Shown in pieces: positions 1 to 17,479 of a DNA stretch of 64,000 bases. Position numbers and translations under genes: made by a program. The DNA comes from Candidatus Iainarchaeum sp. GTDB taxonomy: Archaea > Iainarchaeota > Iainarchaeia > Iainarchaeales > JAGVWC01. The notes beneath the pieces were generated by a model that was not told the origin of the DNA, ran no database searches, and saw only the letters and a list, made by a program, of their open reading frames with translations. The DNA lies in NCBI GenBank assembly GCA_018304465.1, contig JAGVWC010000010.1, forward strand, positions 1 to 64,000, read 5' to 3'. The number at the start of each line of letters is the position of its first letter. Positions within the stretch are counted from its first letter, which is position 1.

Positions 1-1
1 A

Positions 2-1495: not shown

Positions 1496-1800
1496 CAGTT
1501 CACCTGCAGTTTTTTTTGGTTGGCGATTTTTTCCGGACCGCCCAAACCGGCAACATGGATAGTGTGGATAAGCGAAAATTTTGACATGTGGATCGCTGGG
1601 ATTTTGTCGATTATTTGTTGAACCGCCGCAGTTCCACCAAAAGAATCGACGCATCGAACACAAATGAAAAACGGTCGGTGGGCGGCTCCAAGAAAACGTA
1701 AACGCCGTTTTTCGGATAAAGAACAGAAATGACAAGCGGGTTTTACCAATGACTCCCGCACTTCATTTAAATTTTCAACGACTAAAATCATATAGCACAA
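1492..1800 (-). CDS. Small Zn-finger protein of the element
   Basis: CHFC...CVRC motifs; its stop overlaps the start of the downstream ATPase. Confidence 0.6.
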   Translation of the reverse strand: MCYMILVVENLNEVRESLVKPACHFCSLSEKRRLRFLGAAHRPFFICVRCVDSFGGTAAVQQIIDKIPAIHMSKFSLIHTIHVAGLGGPEKIANQKKLQVNC

Positions 1801-1990
1801 CTTCTTGGGTCCCCCGACCCGAAATTTTTAATCTTTCTTGCCCACCTCTGCAAGAACTGCTGAGATTAGTGGGAATTCTTTTATTCTTGTTTTTTCGTCC
1901 AGGCAAAGAATCGCTTTTGCCAAGACCCGGTACTGTTCCAAACTGCTCACCTGGTAGTACATAGGTTTTTAAAATATTTATACTATAACG

Positions 1991-2530: not shown

Positions 2531-2535
2531 AATAG

Positions 2536-2561
2536 AAAAACCCGCGCTTGTTAAGGCGCGG
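2536..2561 (-). terminator. Hairpin plus T-tract between convergent genes
   Basis: CCGCGCTT/AGGCGCGG stem preceded by an A-run on the + strand. Confidence 0.45.
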
Positions 2562-2592
2562 TGTTATCACGGCTATGATTAAAAATTGTTTT

Positions 2593-3873
2593 TCATGGTC
2601 TTTTCACCTCCGCGTTAAGCAATAATTGCATTCCGCGCACGGTTTCTTCTAATTCAAGCATTCGCGCTTCGCTTCGAGTTTGTTCACTGATCAAAGCCGT
2701 TGGATCAAGGCTTAAATTACATTTCAAACAAAGCGAGGCGTTTGCCGGATAGCGCGAACCACATTTGAAACAAGTCTTTGGCGAATCCAATGCTTTGCCA
2801 TTCTTTGGATTGGTTAATCCAACCGTTTCAGCATAGGCTTCGTTTGAATCATCAAACAACATAGCCGAATAAACCTTGGCCATGCTGGATGATTCGTTTC
2901 CATGGGTTCGCTTCAAAGCAACCGCCATATTTTTCATGTTCTTCAAACACCAAGTAACATGGCTTCGCCGAAACATAGTCCAAAAAACCGGTTCACCATC
3001 GTATTGGTTGTAATAAAACCGATTGTTGGTTTTGTGTTTCTTCCATTTTCCCAATCCCGCCTTAACAGCGATCCGGTGTAATGTGTCGCTCAATGCTTTT
3101 TCGGTCATGGGTCTGAAACCGTTTTTTTGCACCAAGAAAACAAAATCGTTAGGGTCTTTTTTGGGAGATTCTTCAAACCAAACCGCCAAAAATCCGGCAA
3201 GTGTTGGTTCTAACAAAATTCCACGCCTTGGCGTTGTTTTGGATTCAATGAAATCAATGGACGCGCTTTTGTTTTCAGGGTTGAACAGCACGTCACGTCT
3301 TCGCAATCCCAAAACTTCGCCAGCGCGTGGCCCCATGCCATAACCCACGGCTACCAATGCTTTTTCTTGGGTGTTCCCCGCGTTTAATAATTTCAAAAAG
3401 CGTTCTTCGGTTATCAAAAAGTTTTCGATTCGGAGTTTTCGTTTTTTGTTTGCTTCAGGGCCGTATGGGTTGCCTGTTTTCATTTCGTCTTTGAGTTCCA
3501 AAAGCATGTTAGGGTATTCTTTTGGATTACACCACTTAATCAGAATCCGAAGGTCTTTGATTCGTCCTTTCCATGTTTGAAGGTTTGGTTCTCGGCCTTC
3601 TTTGCGTTCTTTTTGTTCAAAGTGCTTGATGATTTGCCGGATTTTGTCGGTTCCCAAGGGTGTTAATGGTTGGTCACCCAGTGCTTCGGCGAATTGTCTT
3701 AATGCCCTGGCTAAAAAGTATTTTCGACAAAGCCCGGGGGCTTTTCGTTCATGGGTGTAGTTGGTTAGAAAGTCATTGATTGTTTCTTGGTTTGGTTTGG
3801 ATAATTGGTTTATCTTGGTTGTTTCGCTTTCATATCTTCCTTGTATATAGTGTGGATCGAATTCCCCTGTCAT
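2593..3873 (-). CDS. Tyrosine recombinase/integrase with C-terminal Zn ribbon
   Basis: GPRAGEVLGL (R), ESKT (K), TMFRRSH, THG, KVY (Y) and CFKC..CLKC. The likely start is ATG 3873 after a GAGGGG SD. Confidence 0.9.
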   Translation of the reverse strand: MTGEFDPHYIQGRYESETTKINQLSKPNQETINDFLTNYTHERKAPGLCRKYFLARALRQFAEALGDQPLTPLGTDKIRQIIKHFEQKERKEGREPNLQTWKGRIKDLRILIKWCNPKEYPNMLLELKDEMKTGNPYGPEANKKRKLRIENFLITEERFLKLLNAGNTQEKALVAVGYGMGPRAGEVLGLRRRDVLFNPENKSASIDFIESKTTPRRGILLEPTLAGFLAVWFEESPKKDPNDFVFLVQKNGFRPMTEKALSDTLHRIAVKAGLGKWKKHKTNNRFYYNQYDGEPVFWTMFRRSHVTWCLKNMKNMAVALKRTHGNESSSMAKVYSAMLFDDSNEAYAETVGLTNPKNGKALDSPKTCFKCGSRYPANASLCLKCNLSLDPTALISEQTRSEARMLELEETVRGMQLLLNAEVKRP

Positions 3874-4016
3874 AATACCCCTCTCTTTTTCGAAATTTAA
3901 AAGGAGTGAGGCGTGGACTACAACCAACAACCCAAGAGCATCTGCGGGGCTATTCTTTTTTTCAGACATATTTAATAACTCTCGTCTACTTATTTTGAAA
4001 AAAAGGACGGATTCGA

Positions 4017-4610
4017 ATGCCTCGCCCGAGAAAACCAATTGCAAAACCGTTGCCAAAAATTGCAAAACCGCTGCCAACGATCGACCCCACCCATATATTC
4101 GTAACCACTTCTGTGGCCGCCCGAAAACTAAAAGACTATGGCGTCAAAATCACGGAAGGACAATTGGGAAAATGGATCGACAACGGATTATACACCGGCG
4201 CCCGAATAGTTCATCATCCGCGCAAAGCACGGATCATCGAAGAAAACGTAGTCGATCAGATGATCGCAAACGCAGCCGCCGGACAAAAACTGTACGCCGG
4301 CCTCAAGGCACCCAAAAAAGGCTTTGGGGCCCCGTCAGTTGATCAACGCAAAGAAATTTCCCGACGAATCGCCGCAAACAAAAGAAAAAGTGCAGCGGAC
4401 TGGAGGCAATTCGGAGGCAACATCGAAAAGAATCTGGACACAATCGCTCCGCTGCGAAGAGAACTCTTTTTGCGCGACGACGTGGATTACCAAAAACTGC
4501 TTGTGCTTGACCGGAAAATCAAAGAAGGATTAAAGCTTCCGCCCAAAGAATTCAACCAAAAAATCGTTCTGGTCATTCGACGCGTGCTAGCGAAAAAAAC
4601 CAAGCCGTAA
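4017..4610 (+). CDS. Basic orphan with MerR/excisionase-like HTH
   Basis: MPRPRKP leader, TTSVAARKL...QLGKWIDNG, and a 21-bp-period tandem repeat at 4037-4077 encoding IAKPLP twice. Confidence 0.7.
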   Translation: MPRPRKPIAKPLPKIAKPLPTIDPTHIFVTTSVAARKLKDYGVKITEGQLGKWIDNGLYTGARIVHHPRKARIIEENVVDQMIANAAAGQKLYAGLKAPKKGFGAPSVDQRKEISRRIAANKRKSAADWRQFGGNIEKNLDTIAPLRRELFLRDDVDYQKLLVLDRKIKEGLKLPPKEFNQKIVLVIRRVLAKKTKP

Positions 4611-4774
4611 ACAACTCATTTTTTCACTTCCCTTCAAAAATAAAAAATTATAAAAGTGAATGAACCCAGGTATTCGAACAACATCTCAAATCAAAAAGGG
4701 CGTTAAAACCATTTGTATCCAATAACGGCCAACTCATCGGAGTCGCCAGCGGAAAAGAGCTCATTGGTCTTTGC

Positions 4775-5089
4775 ATGTATGTTCCGGTTCGGACCGACTG
4801 GAATTTCATTTCGTTTATCTGGACACATCAGCGATCTCCGCACGCCAAAGAATTCAAAAAAAACTTTGGGTTGACCCCCGCCCAACAAATCTTTGAAGAA
4901 TTCTCCAAAAATGGAATGCGGTTCTTTTCCCACAACGAAACCACTCCCGCCGGAAACCGGTTTTTGGACTGGTTTAGGCGCGGAAACTTCGTGCGAAAAA
5001 CAGGCGAAAATATATTCGAATTCAATCCCGAAACGGAACATCCAAAAACAAATCCACGGTCCGCCATGCGACGAATCGTTCACCGGTAA
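4775..5089 (+). CDS. Hypothetical protein; start uncertain, possibly frameshifted
   Basis: The frame is open back to about 4664 but the nearest upstream ATG (4660) is out of frame. Confidence 0.5.
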   Translation: MYVPVRTDWNFISFIWTHQRSPHAKEFKKNFGLTPAQQIFEEFSKNGMRFFSHNETTPAGNRFLDWFRRGNFVRKTGENIFEFNPETEHPKTNPRSAMRRIVHR

Positions 5090-5142
5090 ACGGAAAAGCC
5101 GTCAGGGAAACAAATATATTGATCAAGTTCTTTTTGTATGAA

Positions 5143-6048
5143 ATGCCCAAAACACCCAAAGTTCAATTGGCATACCAAAAATACCGGCGGTTCCCCGGCC
5201 GCAAAATTTCTTTTAAAAAATTTTCCAGAATTGTGAACGCAGCTCCAAACGAATCAGTTTCCCATCTGGCCCAGCGGATTTCGTCACATATCCCGACTGT
5301 TCGACGAATCCTGATTCTTTCCGGACGAACACAAGAACAAATATCGGACGCAGGACGAAACGCGCACCAGCTTGCCAATCGCATTGATACCTACATGGAT
5401 CCCGCTACGATGCAATGGGTTGAGAACCAACTGAGTGCAAACCAGTTGACCATCACGAAAATTTCGTCCAGATCAGGAATATCCAAAAAGGCTTTACGAG
5501 GAATTAACAGCCGGAAAAAACTCCGACCCCATTCCCGAAGCAGTGGAAGCAGAATCCAGTGGAAAGAAAGACGAGAACCGGTGTGGGTTAGAATCAAAGG
5601 ACTGCTCAAGGCAAGAACCGTGGACGGAGATCTTAAATACACCGAAAAAGAAGTCAAAGATTTGCTCAGGAAAACTGGCGTCAGAGCAGGCCACGATCTG
5701 ATCGTCAAGATCGCCCAGCAAGTACGTTCCGAGGAAGAGCGAGCGTCAATGCAAGGACGGCAAATTCCCGCGACCGCCCGGCGTGAAACATTCCTGCGCA
5801 GAGCCCTTCGATCCACCTTCGAACCCACTCAAAGAATCATTCGGCGTGCGATCGACCGCGAGGCAGCGCACGGAAGAAAACCGTCTAAAGCAGGAATCCA
5901 ACTTGCCCTCACCCGCTTCAGTTCCAACCAACCCGGACAAAAGCGCAGATTCTTGGAAGGAGAAACCAACAAAAGAAAGATCATTCAAAGATATGCAAGA
6001 AAACTCCGCCCCCAAAAATTCAACTGGGAAGCCATGGCGACGAAATGA
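5143..6048 (+). CDS. Very basic orphan with HTH-like segments
   Basis: MPKTPK leader, Arg/Lys-rich, with SVSHLAQRISSHIPTVRRIL and TITKISSRSGISKKAL. Confidence 0.75.
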   Translation: MPKTPKVQLAYQKYRRFPGRKISFKKFSRIVNAAPNESVSHLAQRISSHIPTVRRILILSGRTQEQISDAGRNAHQLANRIDTYMDPATMQWVENQLSANQLTITKISSRSGISKKALRGINSRKKLRPHSRSSGSRIQWKERREPVWVRIKGLLKARTVDGDLKYTEKEVKDLLRKTGVRAGHDLIVKIAQQVRSEEERASMQGRQIPATARRETFLRRALRSTFEPTQRIIRRAIDREAAHGRKPSKAGIQLALTRFSSNQPGQKRRFLEGETNKRKIIQRYARKLRPQKFNWEAMATK

Positions 6049-6214
6049 AAATGCCTGTTTGGTTCATCCGCGAAACAATTTCGGAAGAATATCTTCGGCA
6101 GGGGTATCATCCAACCCGAATAACGGAGTTAACAGGACTACCCGAACCGGAATTATACCGACTGCGGGAAAACGTCAGACAGCAAACCAAACGAGGTAAA
6201 AAACCCGCCGCGGT

Positions 6215-6472
6215 TTAAACAAGAACGGTATCGCCAAGGATTAACGGTACAAACAAATCATTTTCATCTTTTTTGTTGTTTTTGAATTTCAGGGAAACAA
6301 ACGCATTTTTAATAAAACCAGAAAAATGATGCCCAAGACTTCGATCAACGGCAGCCATCCCAAATGCTTGTTGTACGCGTCGACTTTGCTGATGACCCAG
6401 GCGCCGCGTTGCAAGACGCGATGCGATTTTTTCTTTCGAGCCATATTTTTTCAACACTTGGGAGTTGACCAT
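6215..6472 (-). CDS. Small hypothetical protein
   Basis: ORF from ATG 6472 in an otherwise empty gap. Confidence 0.45.
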   Translation of the reverse strand: MVNSQVLKKYGSKEKIASRLATRRLGHQQSRRVQQAFGMAAVDRSLGHHFSGFIKNAFVSLKFKNNKKDENDLFVPLILGDTVLV

Positions 6473-6555
6473 ACTTACGCGATTGAGAAATAAAAGCACT
6501 TCGGTTGCAAAACCGAACCAATTGATGCAAAAAAGTTGTCCTGGTTTGTGCGGAT

Positions 6556-7092
6556 TCACGCATATAATTCCGCGTTTTCAAGGTGAATGAGCGCCATGCG
6601 AATCGCCTGCTGGGTATAATCTTTTCGGGTCACGCGATTACGCGTCAAAATTCCGATGATTCCTTCTTCTTTTCCCAAAGAATCGCTTTTCGTCAACCCC
6701 GCGTCTTTGACGGCTTTGGCCAATTCCATTTTTTGATGCAACACGCGGTCCATCACTTTAATGGGAACTTCGAACGCAGATGAACACCCGATATGAGCTT
6801 CTTTTCCGTCAAAAATCACGCACACGGTCACTTCCAAAAAACCCGTTTTGGTGTAAGGCACTGCCATCAAACCCGATTCGATTCCAAAACTCAAATCACA
6901 ATCCGAAAAAGCGTTTTTGGCACGCGCAATCGCGCCTTTGAGGATTTCTTCCAAAGACAACGGCTGTTCCGATACATCGGATGACACCGGGCGAAGCTCA
7001 AAAGACGCGTCCGCCAACAAGGGGTATTCGGGAATCAAATCCGTGACCGCCAATAACTTCACGGGGTTTTTCGACGCAACAACGATTTTCAT
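6556..7092 (-). CDS. yjjX: Inosine/xanthosine triphosphatase (YjjX family)
   Basis: MKIVVASKNPVK, SDVSEQP, GIESG, GIIGILT and VTRKD. Confidence 0.9.
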   Translation of the reverse strand: MKIVVASKNPVKLLAVTDLIPEYPLLADASFELRPVSSDVSEQPLSLEEILKGAIARAKNAFSDCDLSFGIESGLMAVPYTKTGFLEVTVCVIFDGKEAHIGCSSAFEVPIKVMDRVLHQKMELAKAVKDAGLTKSDSLGKEEGIIGILTRNRVTRKDYTQQAIRMALIHLENAELYA

Positions 7093-7192
7093 GCTATTAC
7101 TCGGAAAGAAAAAGACTAAAAAACCGTTTGAACCAAAAAAACCCAAAGAATATATACTGTTGAAAAAGAATGATTAAACCATACGGAGCACC

Positions 7193-7630
7193 ATGACCCG
7201 CATCAAAGGAATCCGATATACCCCAAACGACGTTTCCCGCGTCCAACGGCGGCGAAAACTACTTGTCGGAGCCACCGCAACAACGAAATGTATTACGGAA
7301 AAATCCATTGGAAAAAAGAAAACTTTCTCGGATATCCCGGAGCCGCGCGATCAACAGGTTTCGCAAACCCTTGACCCACGAAGGTTTTTCCGATTCGCGG
7401 TTCAAACCCAGATGCGGTCGCAGCAACAATTCTTTTCAATACTCCAAGGACAGCATAGCCGAAAAGAAACACGGCGGTTCGAATTAAAAAGGTTTTTGAA
7501 GGGTCACTCGAGAAACGTCAGGAAAAACATGACCAGAACTCCTAACGCCATGAGCAAGGTATGCGCAAAAATCGCGGAGGGCTTGGTTTCTTTTTTGGTT
7601 TCCGGAATCAAATCCGCCGCCGCGATGTAA
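7193..7630 (+). CDS. Possible basic hypothetical protein; 3' end overlaps the ZIP gene
   Basis: ATG after GGAG and a basic N-terminus, but about 127 bp of antisense overlap. Confidence 0.3.
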   Translation: MTRIKGIRYTPNDVSRVQRRRKLLVGATATTKCITEKSIGKKKTFSDIPEPRDQQVSQTLDPRRFFRFAVQTQMRSQQQFFSILQGQHSRKETRRFELKRFLKGHSRNVRKNMTRTPNAMSKVCAKIAEGLVSFLVSGIKSAAAM

Positions 7631-8259
7631 AGCATTCCGCCGGCCGCGATCGGCAGCAAAAAAGTCTGAACCATCCCCATTTTTTCAAATAAAAAAAACG
7701 TGATAAGCGCTCCGAGCACGGCACTCAACGCCGTAACAAAATTGAACAACAAGGCTTTTTTTTTGGAAAACCCAGAATACAACAAAATTCCAAAATCCCC
7801 GATTTCCTGGGGAATCTCATGAAAAATAACCGCCAAGGTGGTCGCGACTCCCGCCGGAAACGAAACCAAATACGCCCCCGCGATAATCATTCCATCAAGC
7901 AAGTTATGAATGCCGTCCCCCAAGAGATTCATAAACCCCAACGAATGCTGGTGCATTTCTTCTCCCACCGGGGTTCCCGAATGATGGTGCCAGTGCATGG
8001 TTTTTTCGATCAACAGAAAAATGAAAAAACCCACGCAGAAAAAAATCCCAAACGACCGCAACGATTCAGTGGATCCTTCAATGGCTTCCGGAATCAAGTG
8101 CAAAAAAACATCGCCCAACAAGGTGCCCGCGGCAAAGCTCACGAAAAAAAGCAGATATTTCTGCAAAATCGGAGATCTCCAAAACAACAACACGATTCCG
8201 ATGACCGAAACCAAACTGACCGTGAAAACGCTTCCCAAAATCCACAACAACGGATCCAT
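7504..8259 (-). CDS. ZIP family metal (Zn) transporter
   Basis: FLHLIPEA, HWHHH loop, GDGIHNLLDG and HEIPQEIGD. Confidence 0.95.
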   Translation of the reverse strand: MDPLLWILGSVFTVSLVSVIGIVLLFWRSPILQKYLLFFVSFAAGTLLGDVFLHLIPEAIEGSTESLRSFGIFFCVGFFIFLLIEKTMHWHHHSGTPVGEEMHQHSLGFMNLLGDGIHNLLDGMIIAGAYLVSFPAGVATTLAVIFHEIPQEIGDFGILLYSGFSKKKALLFNFVTALSAVLGALITFFLFEKMGMVQTFLLPIAAGGMLYIAAADLIPETKKETKPSAIFAHTLLMALGVLVMFFLTFLE

Positions 8260-8311
8260 ACAACAACCGCCCACACACGATTTTTTTCGGCCATTCAAAG
8301 CCCGAAACTAC

Positions 8312-8349
8312 TAATAACTATTTCTAAAATGTTATTATCAAATAACATT
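8312..8349. promoter_or_regulatory. Putative operator between the ZIP gene and the NikR-like regulator
   Basis: Perfect inverted repeat AATGTTATT-N4-AATAACATT (8328-8349), overlapped by TAATAAC-N12-GTTATTA (8312-8337). Confidence 0.55.
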
Positions 8350-8386
8350 AAAAACGGGTTTGTTAATAAGTATGAAGGAAGAAGTT

Positions 8387-8770
8387 ATGAAAATCGTTTC
8401 GGTTTCGTTTACGGAAAAAAACCTCGACGACATCCGCCAACTCAAACGCGACTTGGGCCTTGGGAATTCCTCGGAAACCCTGCGTGTCGCGCTCCAGTTC
8501 GCGCTGGAAAAACACACCGAAGAAAAAAAAATCCGCGGAAACCAAACCGCGGCCTTGGTGATCCGGCATTCGCACAAAACCGAACGCTTCGTTTCCGACA
8601 CCAAACACGACTTCCAAACGCTGGTCAAAAGTCAGAACCATTACTGCCAAAACAGCGACGAATGCGTCGACATGTTTTTGCTGTCCGGACCCGCCGAACA
8701 AATCAAAAAAATGCGAAACCAACTGCTGTCAAGCAAAGAAATCGGAAAAGTCGCTTTTTTGCCGCTTTAA
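8387..8770 (+). CDS. NikR-family ribbon-helix-helix metalloregulator
   Basis: RHH N-terminus (KIVSVSF..NSSETLRVAL) and an ACT-like C-domain with H..H-x-C..C. Confidence 0.8.
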   Translation: MKIVSVSFTEKNLDDIRQLKRDLGLGNSSETLRVALQFALEKHTEEKKIRGNQTAALVIRHSHKTERFVSDTKHDFQTLVKSQNHYCQNSDECVDMFLLSGPAEQIKKMRNQLLSSKEIGKVAFLPL

Positions 8771-9345
8771 TTTTCGTGCAGATGGTTTCTTGAAAGCTCG
8801 AACGAAAACACTTCGTGGGCCGGTTTTCTGGAACCGACAGGGGCTTTGTTCGAAACCGCCGAATATCCGATCCCGACCATCAAAGGAACGAAATCCCCGT
8901 GTTTTGCATTCAAGAGTCTTTTAGCGATTTCGTTGTCCGGCGTCAGGATGCAAGAGGCAAGACTCAGGTCAGTTGCCGCAAGCGACATGCACAACGCGGG
9001 CATTCCGGCCGAAAGAAAACTCTCGTAAAAACCGAGTTTTTTTTCCTTGATTCCTCGGAAAAATTCTTCGCTCCAATAACCTTCTTTCAAAACAACCGCG
9101 ATGATCGCGTTTGGAAGCGACGCGAAATGACCGTACTTCGCACAACCCACCAGATCGGAAATACGCTGCCGATCACGCACGAGCACGAACTCCCACGGTT
9201 GCACATTCAAATAGCTCGGCGAATATTGCGCACACGAAAGGATTTCATCGAGCAGTTCGGACGGAACTTGCTCGGAGGAATACGCGTACTCCGAGCCGCG
9301 CAATTTGAGCAAGGACAAGAAAGATTTGGGTGAAAACGCATCCAT
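8767..9345 (-). CDS. Nitroreductase family protein
   Basis: SPSYLNVQPWEFVLV and ATDLSLASC. Confidence 0.9.
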   Translation of the reverse strand: MDAFSPKSFLSLLKLRGSEYAYSSEQVPSELLDEILSCAQYSPSYLNVQPWEFVLVRDRQRISDLVGCAKYGHFASLPNAIIAVVLKEGYWSEEFFRGIKEKKLGFYESFLSAGMPALCMSLAATDLSLASCILTPDNEIAKRLLNAKHGDFVPLMVGIGYSAVSNKAPVGSRKPAHEVFSFELSRNHLHEN

Positions 9346-9607
9346 GTCAGGGCCTATAAACAATCCCAACGTAAAAAATATAAATTATTCATACGGGGGT
9401 AAACCACACAAACTATTTAAACGTCGATTGACGAAAGTTAAACGTATTGCTTTAAATTATCCCTGTCTTTAATGTATACTAATGGCTCTGCAAGGGGGAT
9501 TGCACAGCAATTAGCGAAAATCGGGGAAAAATTGATTTTCGTTCGCCAATTCCAGCATTGCAGAACCTGACTTTTCACAGCAATCATCAAAAGGGGAGGA
9601 AACGTAA

Positions 9608-9940
9608 ATGAATATGTCACAAATCGGCGCATATGCCTTTATCGTGGGCATCATCATCGCCATCCTGGCCGGAATCGTTGCACTTGACGCCAACACCACG
9701 CAATGGATTCTCTGGTTGATGGTCGTGCTGGGTCTCATCATCGGATTGCTCAATGTAACCGAAAAAGAAACAACTTCGTTTTTGGTTGCCGCGATCGCTC
9801 TGATCATGACAGCAACCGCACTCTCCGTACTCGCAGTCCCAATCATTGACCGCGTCGTCGGAAACATCGCGGTGCTTGCCGGACCGGCTGCACTCATCGT
9901 TGCGCTACGCGCAATCTGGAACATGGCCAAAAGCGCATAA
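9608..9940 (+). CDS. Small four-helix membrane protein
   Basis: Hydrophobic segments, GLLNVTEKE motif and a strong GGGGAGGA SD. Confidence 0.85.
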   Translation: MNMSQIGAYAFIVGIIIAILAGIVALDANTTQWILWLMVVLGLIIGLLNVTEKETTSFLVAAIALIMTATALSVLAVPIIDRVVGNIAVLAGPAALIVALRAIWNMAKSA

Positions 9941-9978
9941 AAGCGCCAACTCAACCATCTTCCTTTTTTTCTATTTTT

Positions 9979-10782
9979 TTATTTTTTTCGGATCTTAGCA
10001 TCCGCGCGCAACAATTTGGCGTTTTCCTTTAACGCCGATTTAAAATCCGACCGTAAAAAAACGCCCAAATAGCCCACCGCCAACAACGAGCCGAACAAAT
10101 GCGCCCAATTCGCTACGGGAACCTTTTGTTCAAACGCCACGCTTTCCTTTCGCTGTTCGATGGTTTGCTCCACCCGGTTCAATTCCTCCACTTTCTTTTC
10201 GATTTCCGCGGAATCGTTTTGGTCCAGCGCTTCCACCAATTCCGATTGCGCCTGATTTTTCCACGAATCCAACGCCGATTCGAAAGACGAATGCAAAAAC
10301 GGCAGAAGCGACGCCGCCAACACCACGATCACGACGGAGGCAAACAATGCGCCCAAGGCTTTTTTCGGATCCATTATCAACGCCGCGGTCACAAGCCCCA
10401 CGGCGCCACCACTGGCCCCGATCCCAAAAAAATTCAACTGAAAAAAATTGTACAACACCACGGAAAAAATCCCGCAAATCAAAAACAATCCGATCACATG
10501 AATCTTCGAAACCCGTTTTTCCAGCACAAACCCCGCAAGCAAAATCAACACGACATTGGCAATCAAATGGCCAAACCCCGTGTGAATCAGCAAAAAGAAA
10601 AACGCGTTTTCCGGCCGGAAAAAAACATTAAAAGCAAAGCGATGCAACGACTCCACCGAAATAAACCCCATTCCGGCGGAAAAAAACCAAAACGAGGCAA
10701 TCAAAACCACGCCCAGCGAAATCGAAGGCGAAAAAGCACTCAAAAACCAGGCAAAATGATTTTTCGAGGAATTCACAACCAC
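9979..10782 (-). CDS. Rhomboid family intramembrane protease
   Basis: HTGFGHLIAN, GASG and AHLFG. Confidence 0.9.
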   Translation of the reverse strand: MVVNSSKNHFAWFLSAFSPSISLGVVLIASFWFFSAGMGFISVESLHRFAFNVFFRPENAFFFLLIHTGFGHLIANVVLILLAGFVLEKRVSKIHVIGLFLICGIFSVVLYNFFQLNFFGIGASGGAVGLVTAALIMDPKKALGALFASVVIVVLAASLLPFLHSSFESALDSWKNQAQSELVEALDQNDSAEIEKKVEELNRVEQTIEQRKESVAFEQKVPVANWAHLFGSLLAVGYLGVFLRSDFKSALKENAKLLRADAKIRKK

Positions 10783-10837
10783 GAAAAAAGGGCAAAAACA
10801 TTATAAAAACTCTGATGTACAAACATATTCGATTTTA

Positions 10838-11155
10838 ATGGTAAAATTCCGATTCTGTCCCGCGTGTGGCGCCATCGACATGCACGTGCAATCCGACGGA
10901 ACCGACAAATGCGGAACCTGCAAGTACGTCGGAACCGCCATCGAAGGCGCTCCAGACAAACTCAACGAGTACAAAAAAAAGCTCAAGAACGGAACCGCCG
11001 GACCTCAAAGCCATAACCCCGAACCGGCTCCCGGTGTTGCACCCACGCCTTCAACGAACCCGCTCATCGGATCAACCACCGTTAACCAGACCAAAAAAAA
11101 CGGATTAATCGAAAAACACAAGCCCAAAGCAACCGACGAGTTCGAAATCTGGTAA
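10838..11155 (+). CDS. Zn-ribbon protein
   Basis: CPACG...CGTC followed by a low-complexity tail. Confidence 0.75.
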   Translation: MVKFRFCPACGAIDMHVQSDGTDKCGTCKYVGTAIEGAPDKLNEYKKKLKNGTAGPQSHNPEPAPGVAPTPSTNPLIGSTTVNQTKKNGLIEKHKPKATDEFEIW

Positions 11156-11175
11156 TTTGAAGCTTTAAAAAACGA

Positions 11176-11595
11176 TTGGATATTAATAACAACAAAAACG
11201 AAAAAGAATTCGCGAAAAAAGGAGAGATGTGTGTGGATGACTTGACGGTCACGAGCGATTTGTACCCGTTTCGTGTCAGCATGAAAAACAAAGAGCAATG
11301 GGAATTGATTTTAAACATCGAACACCGGGGCACCAAACCCATGAAACTATCGCTTGAAATTGATTTGCCGCGCCAAGTCACGTTTTCGAAAGTCGGACTC
11401 ACCGACAAATACGAAAAACGCTACGACACCTTCAAACCCGGCGACACGATTCGGCTCAAAGAACCGATTTACCTGTCCAATCAAAGCCAAACCGGCAATT
11501 ACTCAGGCTACGTCAAAATCGCGGAACACTTCGGCGATTACGGCTACGAAATGCAAACCAAAAAAAGAGAAGTCCTCTTTCGAATCGTTCCCTAA
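11176..11595 (+). CDS. Hypothetical beta-sandwich-like protein
   Basis: Core-like codon usage and alternating beta pattern; start uncertain. Confidence 0.7.
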   Translation: MDINNNKNEKEFAKKGEMCVDDLTVTSDLYPFRVSMKNKEQWELILNIEHRGTKPMKLSLEIDLPRQVTFSKVGLTDKYEKRYDTFKPGDTIRLKEPIYLSNQSQTGNYSGYVKIAEHFGDYGYEMQTKKREVLFRIVP

Positions 11596-11868
11596 ACCCC
11601 CTGAACCAGGGAACGCTTCATCCGAATTTTTTTTCCTTCCAAGGTTCGGTTCGCAAACAGCAAAACCATTTACAGACCAACCGCGTATTCAATACAGCTT
11701 GGGGAAAAAGGGGGTTGAACAATGACGATCCTTTCAAGCAACAAGGCGCGCAGATGACCCCGATGACATCATTCGCGCCAACGTTCATTCTTTCAAAAAT
11801 ATTGAAACCATCAAATACTTTTCCTGCCCGCCCTAAAAACGGAGTTTAAATAAAGTTCTTCATTTGGC

Positions 11869-12732
11869 TTGCATATGTCAAAACCAGATGATCACTACGA
11901 GCTAATTAGCCCAACCGCATGGGCTGTGGCCCACAGCATAACTTTCTCTGACATTCCCTTTGCTAAAGAAATCTTTGAAGCAATCGAAAAAAATGAAACT
12001 ACAAACGGAAACACTTCCAAATTCACCGAGCTACGCCTTGGTGAAGTCGCTCCCACTTATGAAGCTAGATACAAACTGGTAAATCATCTGTTAGAACAGA
12101 GCAAAGAGATACAGATATTGGAAATTGCCTCAGGACTATGTCCACGCGGAATTTCAATGACAACAAAAACCAATATTCGCTACGTTGAGATGGATTTACC
12201 CGAAGTGATTGCACAAAAAATGGCGATCTTACAATCTGTTGCGGTTCAACTTCCAGCAAACTTGCATCTGGAACCTGGCAACGCACTTGAACCAAAAGAC
12301 TTGCAATCCGCCTCGCGACACTTTGATACCGCTCAAGAGATTGCTGTGATCAACGAAGGATTATTGCGTTATTTGACCTTTGACGAAAAAGCAAAGGTCG
12401 CAAAAAACGTTCATTCACTTCTACAAAAATTCGGTGGTGTTTGGATCACGCCCGACATTACTCTCAAAAGCGGGTTAGCCAGAGAAAATAGGGCCGTTTG
12501 CATTGTCAAAAACACCAAACAAATGACTGGGATCGACATCCAGCAAAACGCGTTCGAAAATGTGGAACAAGCCAAAAAATTCTTTGAACAATTTGGCTTC
12601 ACCATCGAGATTCATAGCTTCTTGGAAATCGAAAAAGAACTCGTTTCTCCTGCAAAACTCAACCTTTCCGCAGCCAAAGTCAAAGACCTCATCGGCCAAT
12701 GGGTCGTTTTTGTGATGAAGATTACAAAATGA
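11869..12732 (+). CDS. Class I SAM methyltransferase (leucine carboxyl methyltransferase-like)
   Basis: QILEIASGLCPRG, YVEMDLPEV and NEGLLRYL. Confidence 0.9.
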   Translation: MHMSKPDDHYELISPTAWAVAHSITFSDIPFAKEIFEAIEKNETTNGNTSKFTELRLGEVAPTYEARYKLVNHLLEQSKEIQILEIASGLCPRGISMTTKTNIRYVEMDLPEVIAQKMAILQSVAVQLPANLHLEPGNALEPKDLQSASRHFDTAQEIAVINEGLLRYLTFDEKAKVAKNVHSLLQKFGGVWITPDITLKSGLARENRAVCIVKNTKQMTGIDIQQNAFENVEQAKKFFEQFGFTIEIHSFLEIEKELVSPAKLNLSAAKVKDLIGQWVVFVMKITK

Positions 12733-12741
12733 GAAACAGCC

Positions 12742-12815
12742 CAGCCAAAAGCCATGTTATTTCCGGTTCGTTTTTATTCCAGCGGATGAAACTGTCTTCC
12801 CAATACAGGAATACG
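12742..12815. repeat. Intergenic repeat copy A
   Basis: Core GTTCGTTTTTATTCCA (12766-12781) with flanks shared with copies B and C. Confidence 0.85.
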
Positions 12816-12909
12816 TTATTTGATTTTCATACGATAAAAATATGGAATCGGACCGAATTCGCGTCGGAATTTGAATAGTTTTTTATAACGGTCTTCACAT
12901 TATTTATTC

Positions 12910-13158
12910 ATGTATTCGTCAAAAATGGTGCCCGTTTCGCTTCCAATTGTAGTTAGCAAGGAAGGCGAATGGTTTGTGGCTTCTTGTCCGCTCCTGGATA
13001 TCGCTACGCAAGGGCAAACCGAAGAAGAAGTTAAGGAAAACATGCAGAATTTAATTCAGGACTATTTTGCGGATGAAGATACGAAAAAACCGTCTCTGGA
13101 AGAGATTTCTTCCGCGTCTGTTTCATTAATGAGCGTTTCGGTCAAACTAAAGGTGTAA
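12910..13158 (+). CDS. hicB: HicB-like antitoxin
   Basis: EGEWFVASCPLLDIATQGQTEEE. Confidence 0.85.
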   Translation: MYSSKMVPVSLPIVVSKEGEWFVASCPLLDIATQGQTEEEVKENMQNLIQDYFADEDTKKPSLEEISSASVSLMSVSVKLKV

Positions 13159-13161
13159 CCC

Positions 13162-13380
13162 ATGACCGGCCTTCGGCCTCTTGACCAAAGCAGAGTCATC
13201 CGAATGCTCGAACAAAACGGATTCAAACAGGCACGATCTGGAAAACATATCACGTTCAAGAAAACAGACGCCGATGGAAACGTACTGACGACATGGGTTC
13301 CGCACCACAAAACTGTCACGGTTTTCGTTATCAAATACATCATCAAACAAACCGGAAAACAAAAACAAGAATTCTACTGA
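13162..13380 (+). CDS. hicA: HicA-like mRNA interferase
   Basis: LEQNGF..RSGKHITF..VPHH. Confidence 0.85.
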   Translation: MTGLRPLDQSRVIRMLEQNGFKQARSGKHITFKKTDADGNVLTTWVPHHKTVTVFVIKYIIKQTGKQKQEFY

Positions 13381-13502
13381 TCACCCGATATCTTCCCACG
13401 ATTCCTCTCCGCTGCGCGATTTACCGACGCGTTTCGGAAGATGGCTAGCTGTAGCATCTTTTTTTTGAGAATTTTCCAGACGCATTAAAGGAATAAAAGA
13501 GA

Positions 13503-13859
13503 TTACTTTCTTTTATGGGTTAAAATAGCTTCCAAGTTATTCCATAGCTGTTTGAACTGGCTCGGAGAACAGCTTTTTTGCAATTGCAAACGAAAGGATT
13601 CCTTGCTGATGATTCCTGAACGGATTAACTGGGCTGCAAACCCAATCCTAAACTGTTCGCTTTGAACAATCTTCGGAACCTTGATCGCATTTTCAGGTAT
13701 AAAAACTGGACCCGTGTATCCTCGATCTACCTGTTTCTTGGCATATCGATTCATTTGTCGTTTTACAGTTTCAACCGTTTTTCTGACCTGACGCCCAGTA
13801 ACTCGTCTTGTTGGTATTACCTGTTTCTTTTTTGGTTTATTTTGTTTTCTCATAGCCAA
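13503..13859 (-). CDS. Basic orphan protein
   Basis: MRKQNKPKKK..RR leader; no recognised domain. Confidence 0.7.
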   Translation of the reverse strand: MAMRKQNKPKKKQVIPTRRVTGRQVRKTVETVKRQMNRYAKKQVDRGYTGPVFIPENAIKVPKIVQSEQFRIGFAAQLIRSGIISKESFRLQLQKSCSPSQFKQLWNNLEAILTHKRK

Positions 13860-13897
13860 TCCAAAGGTCAGGCAAATATCTTTTTAAGCAATGCAAT

Positions 13898-13992
13898 CAG
13901 CCAAACGCCTTATTTTCCCTGTTCGTTTTTATTCCATTTGATAAAGATGTCTTCCCACTACTTGAATACGCTGAACGACTTTTAGACGGATT
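13898..13992. repeat. Intergenic repeat copy B
   Basis: Core at 13921-13936, followed by ATAAAGATGTCTTCCC and AGACGGATT (13984-13992). Confidence 0.85.
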
Positions 13993-14013
13993 TCAGAAGA
14001 AGTGTGGCTGAAA

Positions 14014-14826
14014 TTAAGCGTCTTCTGCAGGCAAAAAATTTTCGATCCGCAAAACGCTTTCCTCTACTGCACGAATCGGGAGTTTATAACGATTCGCAAT
14101 ATCGGGTACCGATGGTTGCTGGCCTTTCTTGTGCAGCGCATTCAGAAACTGAAGAATACGAAAATCCACCATAGCTTTTTCCCGTGCAACCGGGTTTGTT
14201 CGCATGACAAATACTCTCATCGGTTCAGAGTGCGGTTTTTGGTGCGCCCAAGAAGTAATCCATATCCGCTTTCCGGTTTCCTCAAATGTTGCCCCGTACG
14301 CTTTTGCCAATTTTCGCATTCTGGAAAGATCTGCACGATGATCTTTGCGATAAACCAGGTTCATGTAATACGAGCGCATCAAAAATATCCCGCCTTTTTT
14401 ATTCAGCAAAGACCTCGCCAAAACAAGCGGAAGTCTAGGCCAAAGTGGAATCGGTTCAAAAGAAAAGCTCCAATCGAAACGGTTTTCGGTTCTAGGCATT
14501 AATTCGGCGATACGCGCTCGAACCGACGTAAGAGTCTGGGCTTTATTTTCACGCACAAAGTGTACGGCGGTTGGACTTATATCCGTATAATGAACTTCTG
14601 CGAATTGGCCGATCGCTTTAGCCCAGTCGCCATAATCTCCCGCAAAAACCAAAACCTTTTCCCCCGGTTTGATGCCGATCTTTTGCCCTAATTGGGAATC
14701 CTCAGGGACCAAGTCTTGGGTCTTTAAACTGCGTGGTTGATTCCAAAATCCAAGATCCGACCAATATTTTTTACTCCACGCGCGGTGAACAGGGAATTTA
14801 AGGGACACTGATTTTCGATTTTTCAT
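14014..14826 (-). CDS. Divergent SAM methyltransferase-like orphan with C-terminal HTH-like segment
   Basis: KPGEKVLVFAGDYGDW, YTDISP and FDWSFSFEP. Confidence 0.7.
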   Translation of the reverse strand: MKNRKSVSLKFPVHRAWSKKYWSDLGFWNQPRSLKTQDLVPEDSQLGQKIGIKPGEKVLVFAGDYGDWAKAIGQFAEVHYTDISPTAVHFVRENKAQTLTSVRARIAELMPRTENRFDWSFSFEPIPLWPRLPLVLARSLLNKKGGIFLMRSYYMNLVYRKDHRADLSRMRKLAKAYGATFEETGKRIWITSWAHQKPHSEPMRVFVMRTNPVAREKAMVDFRILQFLNALHKKGQQPSVPDIANRYKLPIRAVEESVLRIENFLPAEDA

Positions 14827-14870
14827 GATGAACAATAGCCGTTTGAACTTTAAAAACTGAATCCCCAAAA

Positions 14871-14956
14871 ATCAGGCAAGAAGTTTATTTTTCCTGTTCG
14901 TTTTTATTCCAGCACATAAAGATATCTTCCCGGAATTTTTCTTGCCAAGACGGATT
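14871..14956. repeat. Intergenic repeat copy C
   Basis: Core at 14896-14911, followed by ATAAAGATATCTTCCC and AGACGGATT (14948-14956). Confidence 0.85.
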
Positions 14957-15503
14957 ACACTTCGTTCCAAACCGTCACGAAATTGTCCACAAGATTATCC
15001 AGAAAGCTTCCCTGGTATTCGGACAACATTTGTGCGACTTTGTCCTTGTCCAGAATAAAAAAAGCGGTTTTGGCACCGGTTTTTTTCCGACCCAAAATCC
15101 CGATTTCCACCATTTTTTTCAAATACGTGGAAACCGTGGAAGGCGACAACGAAATCGCTTTTGAAATCACTTCATTGGTCGCAAAACGCTTTTGCAGCAA
15201 AAACAACACGATGTGACGCGGTTGCTCTTGACGCAACGTATTCATAAGTTCCTTGTTTTCCACGATTTTCGTGGTTTTCATCGCGTAATAACGGACGAAT
15301 TTTCCTTCTTTGACGGTGTGCACGAAACTTTTTTTGGACAAGTAATCCAAATGATACTGCAGGCTTCCAACCGCGATTCCGCTTCGTCGCTGAAGCTCCC
15401 TAAAATGCAGTCCCGGGGATTCCTCGATGATCCGGTACAAGCGATTACGCGTCTCAAGTTCGAGCGTGTTATCCTCAAATCGTTTCCGAAGCATCAACAT
15501 CAA
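14955..15503 (-). CDS. Archaeal double wHTH transcriptional regulator
   Basis: PGLHFRELQR..GSLQYHL and a second HTH, ISLSPSTVSTYL. Confidence 0.9.
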   Translation of the reverse strand: MMLMLRKRFEDNTLELETRNRLYRIIEESPGLHFRELQRRSGIAVGSLQYHLDYLSKKSFVHTVKEGKFVRYYAMKTTKIVENKELMNTLRQEQPRHIVLFLLQKRFATNEVISKAISLSPSTVSTYLKKMVEIGILGRKKTGAKTAFFILDKDKVAQMLSEYQGSFLDNLVDNFVTVWNEV

Positions 15504-15916
15504 TCTTTTCGCATGATCGCCAAAAACAAGGCAATGAGCACGAACAAATCAAACACGTTTTGTGCCGCCGAAGAAAAAAAATCTCCCGGACTATACACGG
15601 CATCCACGAGTTTAATTCCGAATTTGGCGAAAATGATTCCAAACGCCAACGTCAAAAACAAAAAACGGTTCGAACGGTTTTTTTCAAACGCTTTGGCGGA
15701 AACAAACAACATTCCCGCAGCCAACAAAAAAACCACGCCGGTCGTCACCCATTTAAGAGACTCCGCCACGGACTCCAGCGGTCGAAGCGAATTCCACAGC
15801 GGATTCTGGGTGTTTTCAGCCCAAAAAACGGCTCCCCACAACACAATGAGCGCTGCCACGGAAAGCAGCAGAATCGTACTTGCCTTCAAAAAGAAACCCC
15901 CGAAATACTCATGCAA
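15500..15916 (-). CDS. Membrane protein coupled to the wHTH regulator
   Basis: Four hydrophobic segments; ATGA overlap with the regulator. Confidence 0.75.
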   Translation of the reverse strand: MHEYFGGFFLKASTILLLSVAALIVLWGAVFWAENTQNPLWNSLRPLESVAESLKWVTTGVVFLLAAGMLFVSAKAFEKNRSNRFLFLTLAFGIIFAKFGIKLVDAVYSPGDFFSSAAQNVFDLFVLIALFLAIMRKD

Positions 15917-16081
15917 TGGTGCAACAAAACAAAGAAAAAACAGTCAGTGAGGAGGGAAAAGGGCATCCCGCCCCTTTGCCGCAAAACACGAAGATGAGGT
16001 GTAACTATACCTATTTCCGCCGGGGGTTAATAAACCCATTTTGGTACAAATCAGGAAAAAAACAGGTTACACCAAAAAAAG

Positions 16082-17479
16082 CTATTTTTTCTTGATTTTT
16101 TTTTCGATAAAACCCTGCAATTCCCGCGGATTGGCTTTTCCCTTGGCTTGCCGCATCATCTGACCCAACAAAAAATTCAAGGATTTTTGGTTCCCCTGTT
16201 TTAACTCCGACACGGCTTGCGGATTTGCCAAGAGCACCGATTCCACGATTTTTTCAGTATCCACGGAACCCAAATCAATCAACAAACCGCTTTTTTCCAA
16301 AAACACTTTCGGAGCAACCCCCGACAACACGTATTCGATCGCCGCTTGTTTGGCGTTTTTTTCCGAAACCTTTCCGCTTTCCAAAAGTTCCAATAAATCC
16401 CCCAGTTCTTTTTCCGACAACGCCACGGAATCAATTTCAAGACGGTTAAAATTCAGAATCCCCAACAATTCCCGTGACAAAAAACGACTTCCAAGACCCG
16501 GCGACACCCGTTTCGAAACGCTTTCGAACAAATCCGACAATTTTTTGTTCGAACACAACACTTTCGCGTCATAATCCGACAAACCGAATTCACGGACAAA
16601 ACGACGGGCTTTTTGGAACGGAAGCTCGGGAAGCGTTGAACGAATCGCATCCATCCATTTCGAATCAATCGTCGACGAAACCAAATCCGGTTCGAAAATA
16701 TACCCGTAATCCGCCTCGGTTTCTTTTTCACGCTGCAACACCGTGCGACCTGATTTGTCGTCAAAACCCCGGGTTTGCTGGCGGATTTCCTCGCCTTGCG
16801 ACAACAATTCGCGCTGGCGTTTTTCCTCGGCCAGCAACGCGCGCTCAACCGCTTGAAAACCCGAAACGTTTTTGATCTCTACTTTTGCATGACCCGAAAT
16901 CGAAAGATTACAATCCGCTTTCAGCACGTCTTCGCCCGGCGAAAACACGTCCAAAAAACCCAAAATCGTCCACAATTTATTCAAAAATTCCCGCGCTTCC
17001 CGGGCGCTTGCCAAATCCGGCTCCGTCACGATCTCAATCAACGGGATTCCCGCGCGGTTATAATCCACCAACGTAAACCCTTTTTCGTGAATCAACGCCG
17101 CGGGATCTTCCTCCAAATGCAACCGGCGAATACGGATTTTTTTTCCCGAATCCAATTCCACAAACCCGTTTTCCGACAACGGAATTTCATACTGCGTAAT
17201 CTGAAAATTTTTGGACATGTCAGGATAAAAATACGTTTTTCTCGAAAAGAAAAAAGACGGGTTTACCTTGCAGTTTAACGCCAACGCCACCTTGGCTGCC
17301 ATCTCCACCGCGGTCTTGTTCAACACGGGTTTTGACCCCGGATGCCCCAAACACACCGGACACACCGCGGAATTCGGTTCTTTGCCCCGCGTCGGACACG
17401 CACAAAACAACTTGGATTTGGTGGACAACTGAACATGCGATTCAAGCCCGATCACTGTTGGAAGCGAATCGATTTTCAT
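16082..17479 (-). CDS. gatB: Asp/Glu-tRNA amidotransferase subunit B
   Basis: IGLESHVQL, FSRKTYFYPD, LHLEED and DYNRAGIPLIEIVTEPD. Confidence 0.97.
   Translation of the reverse strand: MKIDSLPTVIGLESHVQLSTKSKLFCACPTRGKEPNSAVCPVCLGHPGSKPVLNKTAVEMAAKVALALNCKVNPSFFFSRKTYFYPDMSKNFQITQYEIPLSENGFVELDSGKKIRIRRLHLEEDPAALIHEKGFTLVDYNRAGIPLIEIVTEPDLASAREAREFLNKLWTILGFLDVFSPGEDVLKADCNLSISGHAKVEIKNVSGFQAVERALLAEEKRQRELLSQGEEIRQQTRGFDDKSGRTVLQREKETEADYGYIFEPDLVSSTIDSKWMDAIRSTLPELPFQKARRFVREFGLSDYDAKVLCSNKKLSDLFESVSKRVSPGLGSRFLSRELLGILNFNRLEIDSVALSEKELGDLLELLESGKVSEKNAKQAAIEYVLSGVAPKVFLEKSGLLIDLGSVDTEKIVESVLLANPQAVSELKQGNQKSLNFLLGQMMRQAKGKANPRELQGFIEKKIKKK

Follow-up and report, generated by a model that had tools for sequence, protein, structure and literature searches.

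Displaced 3' ends of scpA as probable integration sites bounding accessory-gene arrays in an Iainarchaeales genome

Why should unrelated accessory genes in an archaeal genome be separated, one unit per interval, by copies of a single degenerate repeat? This question is raised by positions 11,869 to 14,956 of a stretch of 64,000 nucleotides (hereafter the window; contig JAGVWC010000010.1 of assembly GCA_018304465.1) from Candidatus Iainarchaeum sp., for which a preliminary description, made from the letters of the sequence, proposed an array punctuated by a repeat of about 60-75 bp, representing either recombination sites for the serial capture of gene cassettes or 3' remnants that a gene had shed in the course of repeated insertion. 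We find that the repeat is the 3' end of scpA, and consider it probable that its copies are attachment (att) sites left by serial integration through a tyrosine recombinase at this gene, followed by accretion. Below, G000 denotes the source genome, C7, C10, C13 and C15 are contigs of G000 (the window lies on C15), G002 and similar labels denote other genomes of the same order, and R1 to R4 are the repeat copies of the window.

The repeat is readily recovered as it was first reported. Exact matches to the 16-mer GTTCGTTTTTATTCCA are found at 12766, 13921 and 14896 within longer similar flanks, which form the repeat families D1 (62 nt, three copies, 66-81% identity) and D2 (74 nt, 74% identity). 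When up to two mismatches are allowed, the window contains 4 matches against 0.21 expected, a number reached by 0 of 100 shuffles, although the fourth (1223-1238, minus strand) has no repeat context and is unrelated. A truncated copy, GATATCTTCCC, is found at 13387 (also as family D10), AGACG(G/C)ATT is found at 13478, 13984 and 14948, and the peptides on the minus strand are, as first given, WEDSFIRWNKNE, WEDIFIKWNKNEQGK and EDIFMCWNKNEQEK, the last two followed by a stop codon. The statement that the repeat is not palindromic in the manner of attC also agrees with single-strand DNA folding, as six folds (three copies, both strands) are unremarkable (z -0.75 to +0.48) and reveal no hairpin tendency. 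Moreover, Logan contigs of the public run X5, which is not marked as a possible source, were assembled independently and reproduce the window with 0 differences over 11273-13050 and 13620-15277, and with one substitution and one gap over 13132-13647, so that the order of the units is not an artefact of the present assembly.

The origin of the repeat lies elsewhere in the genome. In a six-frame scan of G000 for the peptide motif, one long open reading frame (ORF) ends in the motif, and this ORF (C7:97586-98392, minus strand) encodes an intact ScpA of 268 aa, ending ...IMIWQEQFWEDIFIRWNKNQQEK. Residues 58-261 of this protein match positions 2-231 of the 232 in the Pfam model SMC_ScpA (PF02616, 3.9e-16), and the reading frame is therefore complete, the model being matched to its last position but one. 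Given that the 268-aa ORF both ends in the motif and matches SMC_ScpA, the repeated peptide is the genuine C-terminus of the kleisin ScpA. Aligned copies span the last ~21 codons of scpA, the stop codon and ~16 nt more, thereby reaching the start codon of the next gene. Of the two readings first offered for the repeat, that of gene remnants left by repeated insertion is thus borne out, with scpA as the gene.

Displaced scpA tails are not confined to the window. Within the 1.25-Mb, 15-contig genome the 16-mer occurs 7 times with at most one mismatch, versus 0 times for a reversed control; the occurrence on C10 is treated as chance, because it falls inside a long unrelated ORF and was missed by the profile search. 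That search, using an nhmmer profile of the repeat built from 11 copies, identified 14 copies at a census threshold of E <= 0.005, all in a single orientation and distributed over five loci (Table 1). Directly downstream of scpA lies an array of displaced tails extending over ~10 kb, which numbers seven copies when the tail of scpA itself is counted, the other six being displaced or partial. The copies bound units of one to three accessory genes and are of two types. In type B (R3, C7 94.55k and C7 119.5k) the scpA sequence extends upstream to the W249 codon, whereas type-A copies possess a different left arm of 60-70 nt that is conserved among themselves. A profile of this arm gives 7 matches at E <= 2.3e-4 (R1, R2, R4, C7 96.3k, C7 118.1k, C7 117.5k and C7 10.7k) and adds two left-half sites to the census, for a total of 16 att-related sites in G000.

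The manner in which the copies have diverged is informative. Relative to scpA, 10 copies compared over 12 gap-free codons show 15, 7 and 41 differences at codon positions 1, 2 and 3, and 30 synonymous and 21 nonsynonymous codon changes, counts that derive from mutually related copies and hence do not constitute a formal test. Since the differences are mainly at third positions, the copies diverged while coding, which explains the synonymous-looking changes noticed at the outset. Judged from its sequence, each copy is a former working ScpA tail, either chromosomal or carried by an element that restored the gene upon integration. A perfect palindrome, AAGATATCTT, is present in scpA, R3 and two further copies, within the best-conserved part of the repeat. 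Pattern scans for the repeat were negative in 40 relatives and in genome_contigs, and matched a single metagenome contig (L021, 1801 nt), which represents the scpA locus of the same organism: its ScpA is identical, the next gene (205 aa) differs by a 3-codon insertion, and a relE-like gene follows in the same order.

Table 1 Coordinates of the features discussed (window positions unless a contig is named; C15 carries the window)
Feature	Position	Strand	Evidence
att locus	C7 9982-10050		nhmmer
att locus, seven sites including scpA's own tail	C7 88578-97649		nhmmer
att locus, three sites	C7 117452-119530		nhmmer
att locus, R1, R2 and R3 of the window	C15 12738-14949		nhmmer
att locus	C15 104684-104763		nhmmer
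Inserted island, four att-bounded modules	11596..14954 (3.36 kb)		Gene order in relatives and GC content
Conserved 139-aa gene, distal flank	11176..11595	+	Orthologue in G003 (46% identity) abuts the wHTH gene
SAM-dependent methyltransferase, LCM/TIGR00027 type, distal module	11869..12732	+	PF04072 5.7e-10; TIGR00027 1.9e-10, below its cut-off
R1: full att (12738-12817) and type-A left arm (12801-12860)	12738..12860	-	nhmmer 3.7e-17; arm 2.2e-7
82-aa putative antitoxin, HicB position	12910..13158	+	3 nt upstream of hicA
HicA toxin	13162..13380	+	PF07927 3.3e-10, 40.3 bits vs cut-off 27
R4: left-half att, type-A arm (13397-13453) and core up to TGGGAAGATATC, joined 6 nt from the hicA stop	13387..13453	-	arm nhmmer 1.7e-8
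Basic 118-aa orphan	13503..13859	-	Paralogue C7:94636-95010, also between att copies
R2: full att (13895-13975) and type-A left arm (13956-14014)	13895..14014	-	nhmmer 3.9e-17; arm 7.5e-12
284-aa ORF, weakly methyltransferase-like	14014..14868	-	Methyltransf_31 2.7e-5, below cut-off
R3: full att, type B (scpA-like from the W249 codon)	14868..14949	-	nhmmer 3.5e-18; 87% identity to the scpA 3' end
Conserved two-wHTH regulator, proximal flank	14955..15503	-	67-69% identical orthologues in G002 and G003
494-aa tyrosine recombinase, C-terminal Zn ribbon	2593..4077	-	PF00589 6.2e-8
Frame-split paralogue (309 and overlapping 57 aa) of the 356-aa scpA-array module protein	5119..6218	+	tblastx to C7:95155-96225

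The array of the window occupies an island that relatives lack. In G003, the gene for the winged helix-turn-helix (wHTH) regulator and the homologue of 11176-11595 converge, the two ORFs as annotated ending 4 nt apart, and the homologue of 10838-11155 comes next; the arrangement in G002 is similar. As the flanking genes thus stand back to back in relatives of the same family, 11596-14954 is inserted DNA, and its guanine-plus-cytosine (GC) content is 0.40-0.45, compared with 0.45-0.52 in the flanks. The last two codons of the wHTH gene (GK) have been replaced, such that the protein ends in VWNEV here versus VWNEVGK in G003. A second insertion is found at endA, where an AlaX-like gene lies ~240 nt past endA in G003 and ~3.5 kb separates the two in G000, the inserted DNA opening with an att copy 35 nt past the endA stop. 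Gene content at these places is therefore not fixed among relatives, the window island being absent from G003 and G002 and the endA island from G003; for the scpA array itself, no empty site can be defined from relatives as distant as these.

In the orientation of scpA, the island consists of the wHTH stop codon, R3, the 284-aa gene, R2, the 118-aa orphan, R4, hicA and its partner (reversed), R1 and the methyltransferase (reversed), with 270 nt of non-coding DNA between the LCM-type methyltransferase and the 139-aa gene at the distal end, and no att found beyond the distal methyltransferase module. The modules R3-R2, R2-R4 and R4-R1 are att-bounded and without recombinase genes, and no pseudogene remnants were found inside the window modules. 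The units had been listed as a methyltransferase, hicBA and two basic orphans, and this stands for the methyltransferase and hicA. The 82-aa partner of hicA, which lacks a significant HicB match (no Pfam or NCBIfam match at E <= 0.01, and only a match at 0.39 to 2yzt), is termed an antitoxin by its position and spacing only, and the 118-aa ORF is the one true basic orphan, the 284-aa ORF being weakly methyltransferase-like. The latter probably starts at the ATG at 14826 and has a partial paralogue at C7:14514-14861 (tblastx). For the orphan there was no match in 150 other genomes of the order, Pfam, NCBIfam or PDB sequences, and nothing usable from Atlas; its module occurs in two arrays, homology running from the right half of the upstream att to the stop codon (75.7% nucleotide identity between the two genes over 329 nt).

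It is the hicBA module that offers the clearest view of how a unit may have entered. R4 and R1 have the appearance of a pair of junctions formed when this 620-bp module split a single att, in which case R4 keeps the resident left arm, and R1 would combine the module's own left arm with the resident right half; the toxin-antitoxin (TA) pair, first thought to stabilise the array, is indeed within it, and specifically inside what appears to be a split att. The best match to R1 in the genome is the att after the paralogous basic gene on C7 (83.6% identity). The same layout recurs at C7 10 kb, where a type-A arm plus GGGAAAAC is followed by an antitoxin and ParE and then by a full att, and the left half at C7 117.45k, the third of its kind, stops 9 nt more to the right. 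All three left-half breakpoints, which are independent of one another, fall within ~13 nt, at or just right of the core palindrome, and such clustering matches the expectation for strand exchange at a core site. On the R1 side, ~30 nt more, with the TA promoter region, are held in common with C7:96296-96413, and the resulting arm-plus-promoter segment (121 nt, 75% identity) stands beside hicBA in the window and beside an unrelated relE-like pair in the scpA array, so that two different TA pairs have the same att and promoter arm.

Two smaller features of the att copies may be mentioned here. AGACG[GC]ATT reads AATSCGTCT in the orientation of scpA, and its distance upstream of the core varies from 16 nt in R3 to 27 nt in R2 and ~75 nt in R4, the copy in R3 beginning 1 nt past the wHTH stop, at the outermost edge of the island; it may be an arm-type binding site. 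At C7:~94990-95100, upstream of the basic paralogue, a tandem pair of partial and decayed right halves of att (...TTGGCTGA, then ...AATAAAAATCAGCAGGAAAAATAA...GGCTGA) suggests older additional events.

Evidence that scpA is a target of integration comes from other members of the order. ScpA is single-copy in 37 of 40 relatives, and a search with the G000 protein detected no extra scpA fragments in the 37 scpA-bearing relatives, tail fragments being found only in G000. As this query is insensitive, relatives were searched again with each genome's own 95-nt tail, over as much as 14 kb beyond scpA in 60 genomes of the order, 4 of the contigs stopping within 1 kb. In G028, 18 nt of the tail recur without a mismatch 10.66 kb downstream of scpA (E 1.4e-5), a 478-aa gene with a Phage_integrase domain and a C-terminal Zn ribbon follows scpA directly, and the remainder of the 10.7-kb element consists mostly of ORFans. 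[quoted passage not shown] A 20/22-nt repeat in G017, in frame as FFGEIFI and directly after the first downstream gene (E 0.003), is borderline relative to chance and probably a real case. The repeats in relatives all cover the (F/W)(G/E)(E/D)IFI codons, which are the best-conserved part of the G000 copies, and the ScpA proteins of relatives end at the same motif. Furthermore, an integrase 68% identical to that of G028 follows scpA directly in G057, with a terminase large subunit gene nearby, and in G015 an integrase match begins 78 nt past scpA, at the contig end. Elements bearing integrases at scpA are found in at least three other families of the order, one of them with a terminase gene of tailed-virus type, and insertion sizes at scpA in relatives range from 10.7 kb with an integrase to 2.6 kb and 1.6 kb without. 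The element of G057 (C3:59334-74084) contains the integrase, a MarR-like regulator and the terminase large subunit (Terminase_6N/6C), and on the terminase alone is probably a provirus. Genome-wide searches for own-tail copies in G057 and G028 returned nothing beyond what is given here.

Which recombinase might act in G000? Its tyrosine-recombinase loci are four in number: XerA, which contains an intein; a broken copy on C13; a 452-aa protein (C7:680-2038); and the 494-aa protein of the window. The last has the same layout, a catalytic domain plus Zn ribbon, as the scpA-adjacent integrases of G028 and G057, a family for which 72 of the 150 other genomes of the order that were searched have matches to the G057 query at E <= 1e-20, and on its sequence it is the best candidate for an integrase acting in trans. 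This role is an inference, given that the protein is just 23% identical to the scpA-adjacent integrases. It carries a CxxC...CxxC Zn ribbon and a coiled-coil tail, and its broken paralogue (C13:~90.1-91.3 kb) lies beside a 266-aa ORF (C13:91581-92381). A search for an att for the window integrase found no tRNA genes, and no convincing direct repeats in 1-11900.

Taken together, the following course of events appears probable. Mobile elements of this archaeal order would integrate by means of a tyrosine recombinase at the (F/W)(G/E)(E/D)IFI codons near the end of scpA, the attP of each element supplying a replacement tail and shifting the old tail downstream, so that repeated integration would line up displaced tails as direct repeats, separated by cargo. 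This would have happened many times in G000, where DNA bearing att would also have landed at four other places besides scpA, and at each ectopic att further modules could then land. The island of the window would be such a secondary array, inserted at the 3' end of the conserved wHTH gene, into one resident att of which the hicBA module recombined, with crossover at or next to the palindrome AAGATATCTT. The modules may have arrived small or may have been trimmed from larger elements. Given the absence of integrases they resemble cis-mobilizable elements (CIMEs), and, because no module carries one, any further movement would need an integrase in trans.

Several observations weigh against this course of events. 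None of the five G000 arrays has an integrase inside or beside it, the nearest (window 2593-4077 and C7:680-2038) being ~9 kb off, behind housekeeping genes, and the similarity of the 494-aa protein to the G028 and G057 integrases (23% identity; E 1e-10 and 1e-7) is no closer than that of those integrases to XerA. The proximal edge of the island is a complete R3, 6 nt after the wHTH stop, rather than a breakpoint within the att core, and this is unexpected, as canonical recombination between attP and a secondary site predicts a half-site. Nor does the insertion site appear predisposed: the ancestral wHTH 3' end, as preserved in G003 and G002, reaches scores of 10 and 9 when compared with the 80-nt att, which place it 372nd and 563rd among 1109 G000 gene ends, and since it resembles att no better than ordinary gene ends do, a pseudo-att at this position is not supported. 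Among relatives, tail repeats at E <= 0.01 occur on the same strand in 7 and on the opposite strand in 5 of the 60 loci, and only G028 and G073 clearly exceed chance; the weaker matches in G167, G063, G102 and G091, of which the first two are borderline, were not counted, as the opposite-strand background is nearly as high. No attR was found for the G057 element, either within 14 kb downstream or genome-wide at E <= 1. Finally, no excision or empty-site joints at the repeats were found in the Logan contigs of four runs, which is weak evidence, as these contigs drop rare variants.

A few further candidates were rejected. The only joint tabulated, 14948 to 13564 (X5, X6), is a record with 5-8 differences that fits the paralogous C7 locus, and an item in X5 linking 11801 to 16111 with 39 letters between has ~18 nt of support on one side (an estimate from the depth table) and was not counted as an empty-site allele. 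The att-like end of C13:89137-89985, beside the integrase remnant, scores 19 compared with 17.5 for the next and is no outlier.

The other half of the preliminary description, that the repeats are recombination sites for serial cassette capture, is not exclusive of gene remnants, because remnants that are att sites of a tyrosine recombinase are also recombination sites. To this extent it holds, the remnants being best read as att sites; capture one at a time by a dedicated platform goes beyond what the data show. A dedicated, functionally integron-like system, in which independently mobile mini-circles (one gene or TA pair with a double-stranded attP of ~130 nt, composed of the type-A arm and the scpA-derived core) are captured and shuffled by a recombinase in trans, both at scpA and at ectopic att copies, would refine serial integration at scpA rather than contradict it, and we consider it unlikely. 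Its appeal lies in the units themselves, which measure 0.45-1.4 kb, hold one gene or TA pair with hardly any spare DNA, and share the same 60-70-nt left arm in seven copies despite unrelated cargo; the hicBA and parDE-like modules each have a clean left-half att on one side and a full att on the other, the basic-orphan module recurs in two arrays, and an integrase is found in none of the modules. However, ordinary large elements occur at scpA in relatives (10.7 kb with an integrase; an integrase then a terminase), together with an intermediate without integrase (2.6 kb, G073), which fits a decay series, and the 356-aa module protein has a paralogue near the window integrase, as would the remnant of a larger element. 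One interval, moreover, comprises three genes over 5.4 kb, and contigs of public runs contain no circles or variant arrays. DNA loss in DPANN genomes is also strongly favoured over gain, and this deletion bias leads one to expect trimmed remnants.

Two further explanations dispense with integration by a site-specific recombinase at scpA. That the repeat is a miniature inverted-repeat transposable element (MITE), or another dispersed repeat moved by a transposase that includes, or was acquired from, the scpA end, might be suggested by its presence at five loci, four of them unrelated to scpA, and by insertion at the wHTH end outside the att core. Yet the copies always lie at gene boundaries and lack terminal inverted repeats and target-site duplications, and among the 11 inverted pairs listed for 11000-16000 no arm pair flanks a copy. 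They are single direct sites between cargo genes and not paired ends of a short element, their divergence, biased to third positions, indicates evolution as coding tails, and relatives have integrases at the homologous site; we regard a transposase-moved repeat as highly improbable. No more credence can be given to segmental duplication or gene conversion, or to an artefact of binning and assembly. Paralogues of the basic orphan, and att copies, could in principle have spread by homologous recombination, but the cargo of different units is nearly all unrelated and the breakpoints cluster at the core. The genome is a bin of 15 contigs, but its junctions are reproduced by independent Logan contigs, and a separate metagenome contig holds scpA, the 205-aa gene and the relE-like gene in the same order.

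Serial integration at scpA would be a known kind of event, namely accretion at a gene's 3' end, although very small modules and spread to secondary sites are unusual, and scpA is, as far as we found, undescribed as a target. In the full-text literature we found no paper naming it as an integration target, with the proviso that supplements of preprints may list such sites; a 2025 preprint on archaeal proviruses mentions neither integration sites nor ScpA in its main text. In Streptococcus thermophilus, integrative and conjugative elements (ICEs) target fda. The ICESt1/ICESt3-related elements of that species likewise form tandem accretions at the 3' end of a housekeeping gene, with att-flanked units devoid of integrase. 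By comparison, the present case is archaeal (DPANN), has scpA as its target, lacks conjugation genes, involves far smaller units (0.45-1.4 kb) and includes arrays at four non-target sites. As outlined for the accretion of ICEs, integrative and mobilizable elements (IMEs) and CIMEs (PMC5704250), integration regenerates the gene's 3' end, repeats occur into att, and att-flanked units lose their integrase. The feature of CIMEs recognisable here is the retention of attL- and attR-type sites with integrase and transfer genes absent.

Growth at one site that leaves partial target copies is also shared with the tycheposon islands of Prochlorococcus, described as successive integrations at one site, with scattered partial tRNAs, degraded elements and cargo-only DNA between remnants (10.1101/2020.12.28.424599). 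Unlike the G000 arrays, which are known from sequence, those islands target tRNA genes, many of their elements still possess integrase and replication modules, and activity has been shown experimentally, according to the same account. Of 68 elements whose sites are defined in another archaeal group, 14 are situated in the 3'-distal part of protein genes, to which they contribute a new stop, and arrays arise from re-use of sites (PMC6563490). The elements of that group differ in having short direct repeats, and in the portion of the report available to us no arrays of single-gene units are described and scpA is absent among the targets listed.

Integrons, which have been reported in Archaea (10.1101/2022.02.06.479319), similarly form arrays of mostly single-gene units between recombination sites, with a recombinase acting in trans on the cassettes. 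In contrast, none of the G000 arrays is accompanied by an IntI-attI-Pc platform, the head of the window array being the wHTH gene and that of the main array scpA with uvrC upstream, and the sites are double-stranded, derived from a gene and non-folding, unlike attC. TA cassettes occur in large integron arrays. The G000 units, unlike those of integrons, occur in both directions and seem to be equipped with promoters of their own. Small modules without integrases, often single genes or TA pairs bounded by sites of a recombinase encoded elsewhere, are also known as integrative mobile elements exploiting Xer (IMEX) and as pdif modules of Acinetobacter plasmids. The att of G000 differs in not being dif-like, and its sites are all direct rather than alternating. 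A dif site comprises two inverted arms of ~11 bp around a ~6-bp spacer (PMC2958812). The best candidate in the G000 repeat has inverted arms matching at 9/11 positions with a 4-nt spacer; 45 of 500 shuffles do as well, the arms lack conservation from one copy to another, and this candidate was rejected.

The DPANN archaea have tiny, streamlined genomes, in which the gain of accessory genes is little understood. Displaced scpA tails provide an easily recognised signature, with 16 recombination junctions in G000, and bound much of the visible accessory DNA at five loci, including TA pairs, methyltransferases, secreted proteins and orphans. The scpA site, with a defined att and candidate integrases, also provides a practical means of locating mobile elements and proviruses in these uncultured archaea. 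A more far-reaching possibility, less likely than not, is that iainarchaeal (DPANN) genomes have a system of gene-cassette capture whose origin is independent of integrons, in which mini-modules of one gene or TA pair, with a double-stranded attP of ~130 nt mimicking the scpA end, would be inserted, excised and shuffled by a Zn-ribbon tyrosine recombinase encoded elsewhere, scpA acting as the primary platform and ectopic att sites as new ones. Were small modules indeed to move individually, this would constitute a second, non-integron route to cassette arrays, and arrays of accessory genes could seed themselves around a 1.2-Mb genome.

Some minor observations remain. The 356-aa protein family has, besides the window copy split by a frameshift, a 400-aa paralogue at C15:238368-239570; it has no Pfam or NCBIfam match, and no relatives in genome_contigs or viral_contigs. 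Contigs of relatives often end soon after scpA (2 nt in G042, 74 nt in G013, 124 nt in G003 and 213 nt in G051), which would fit insertions that vary among strains. Contig ends less than 1 kb after scpA number 4 of 20 plus-strand and 8 of ~78 minus-strand loci, against ~5 of 66 contig starts less than 1 kb before it, and these counts do not establish an enrichment over ordinary fragmentation. In G073, locus L135 (C12, 3670-6039, minus strand) encodes a 790-aa PurD (GARS_A, GARS_C) with a LAGLIDADG domain between the two halves, which from its sequence looks like an intein in phosphoribosylamine-glycine ligase.

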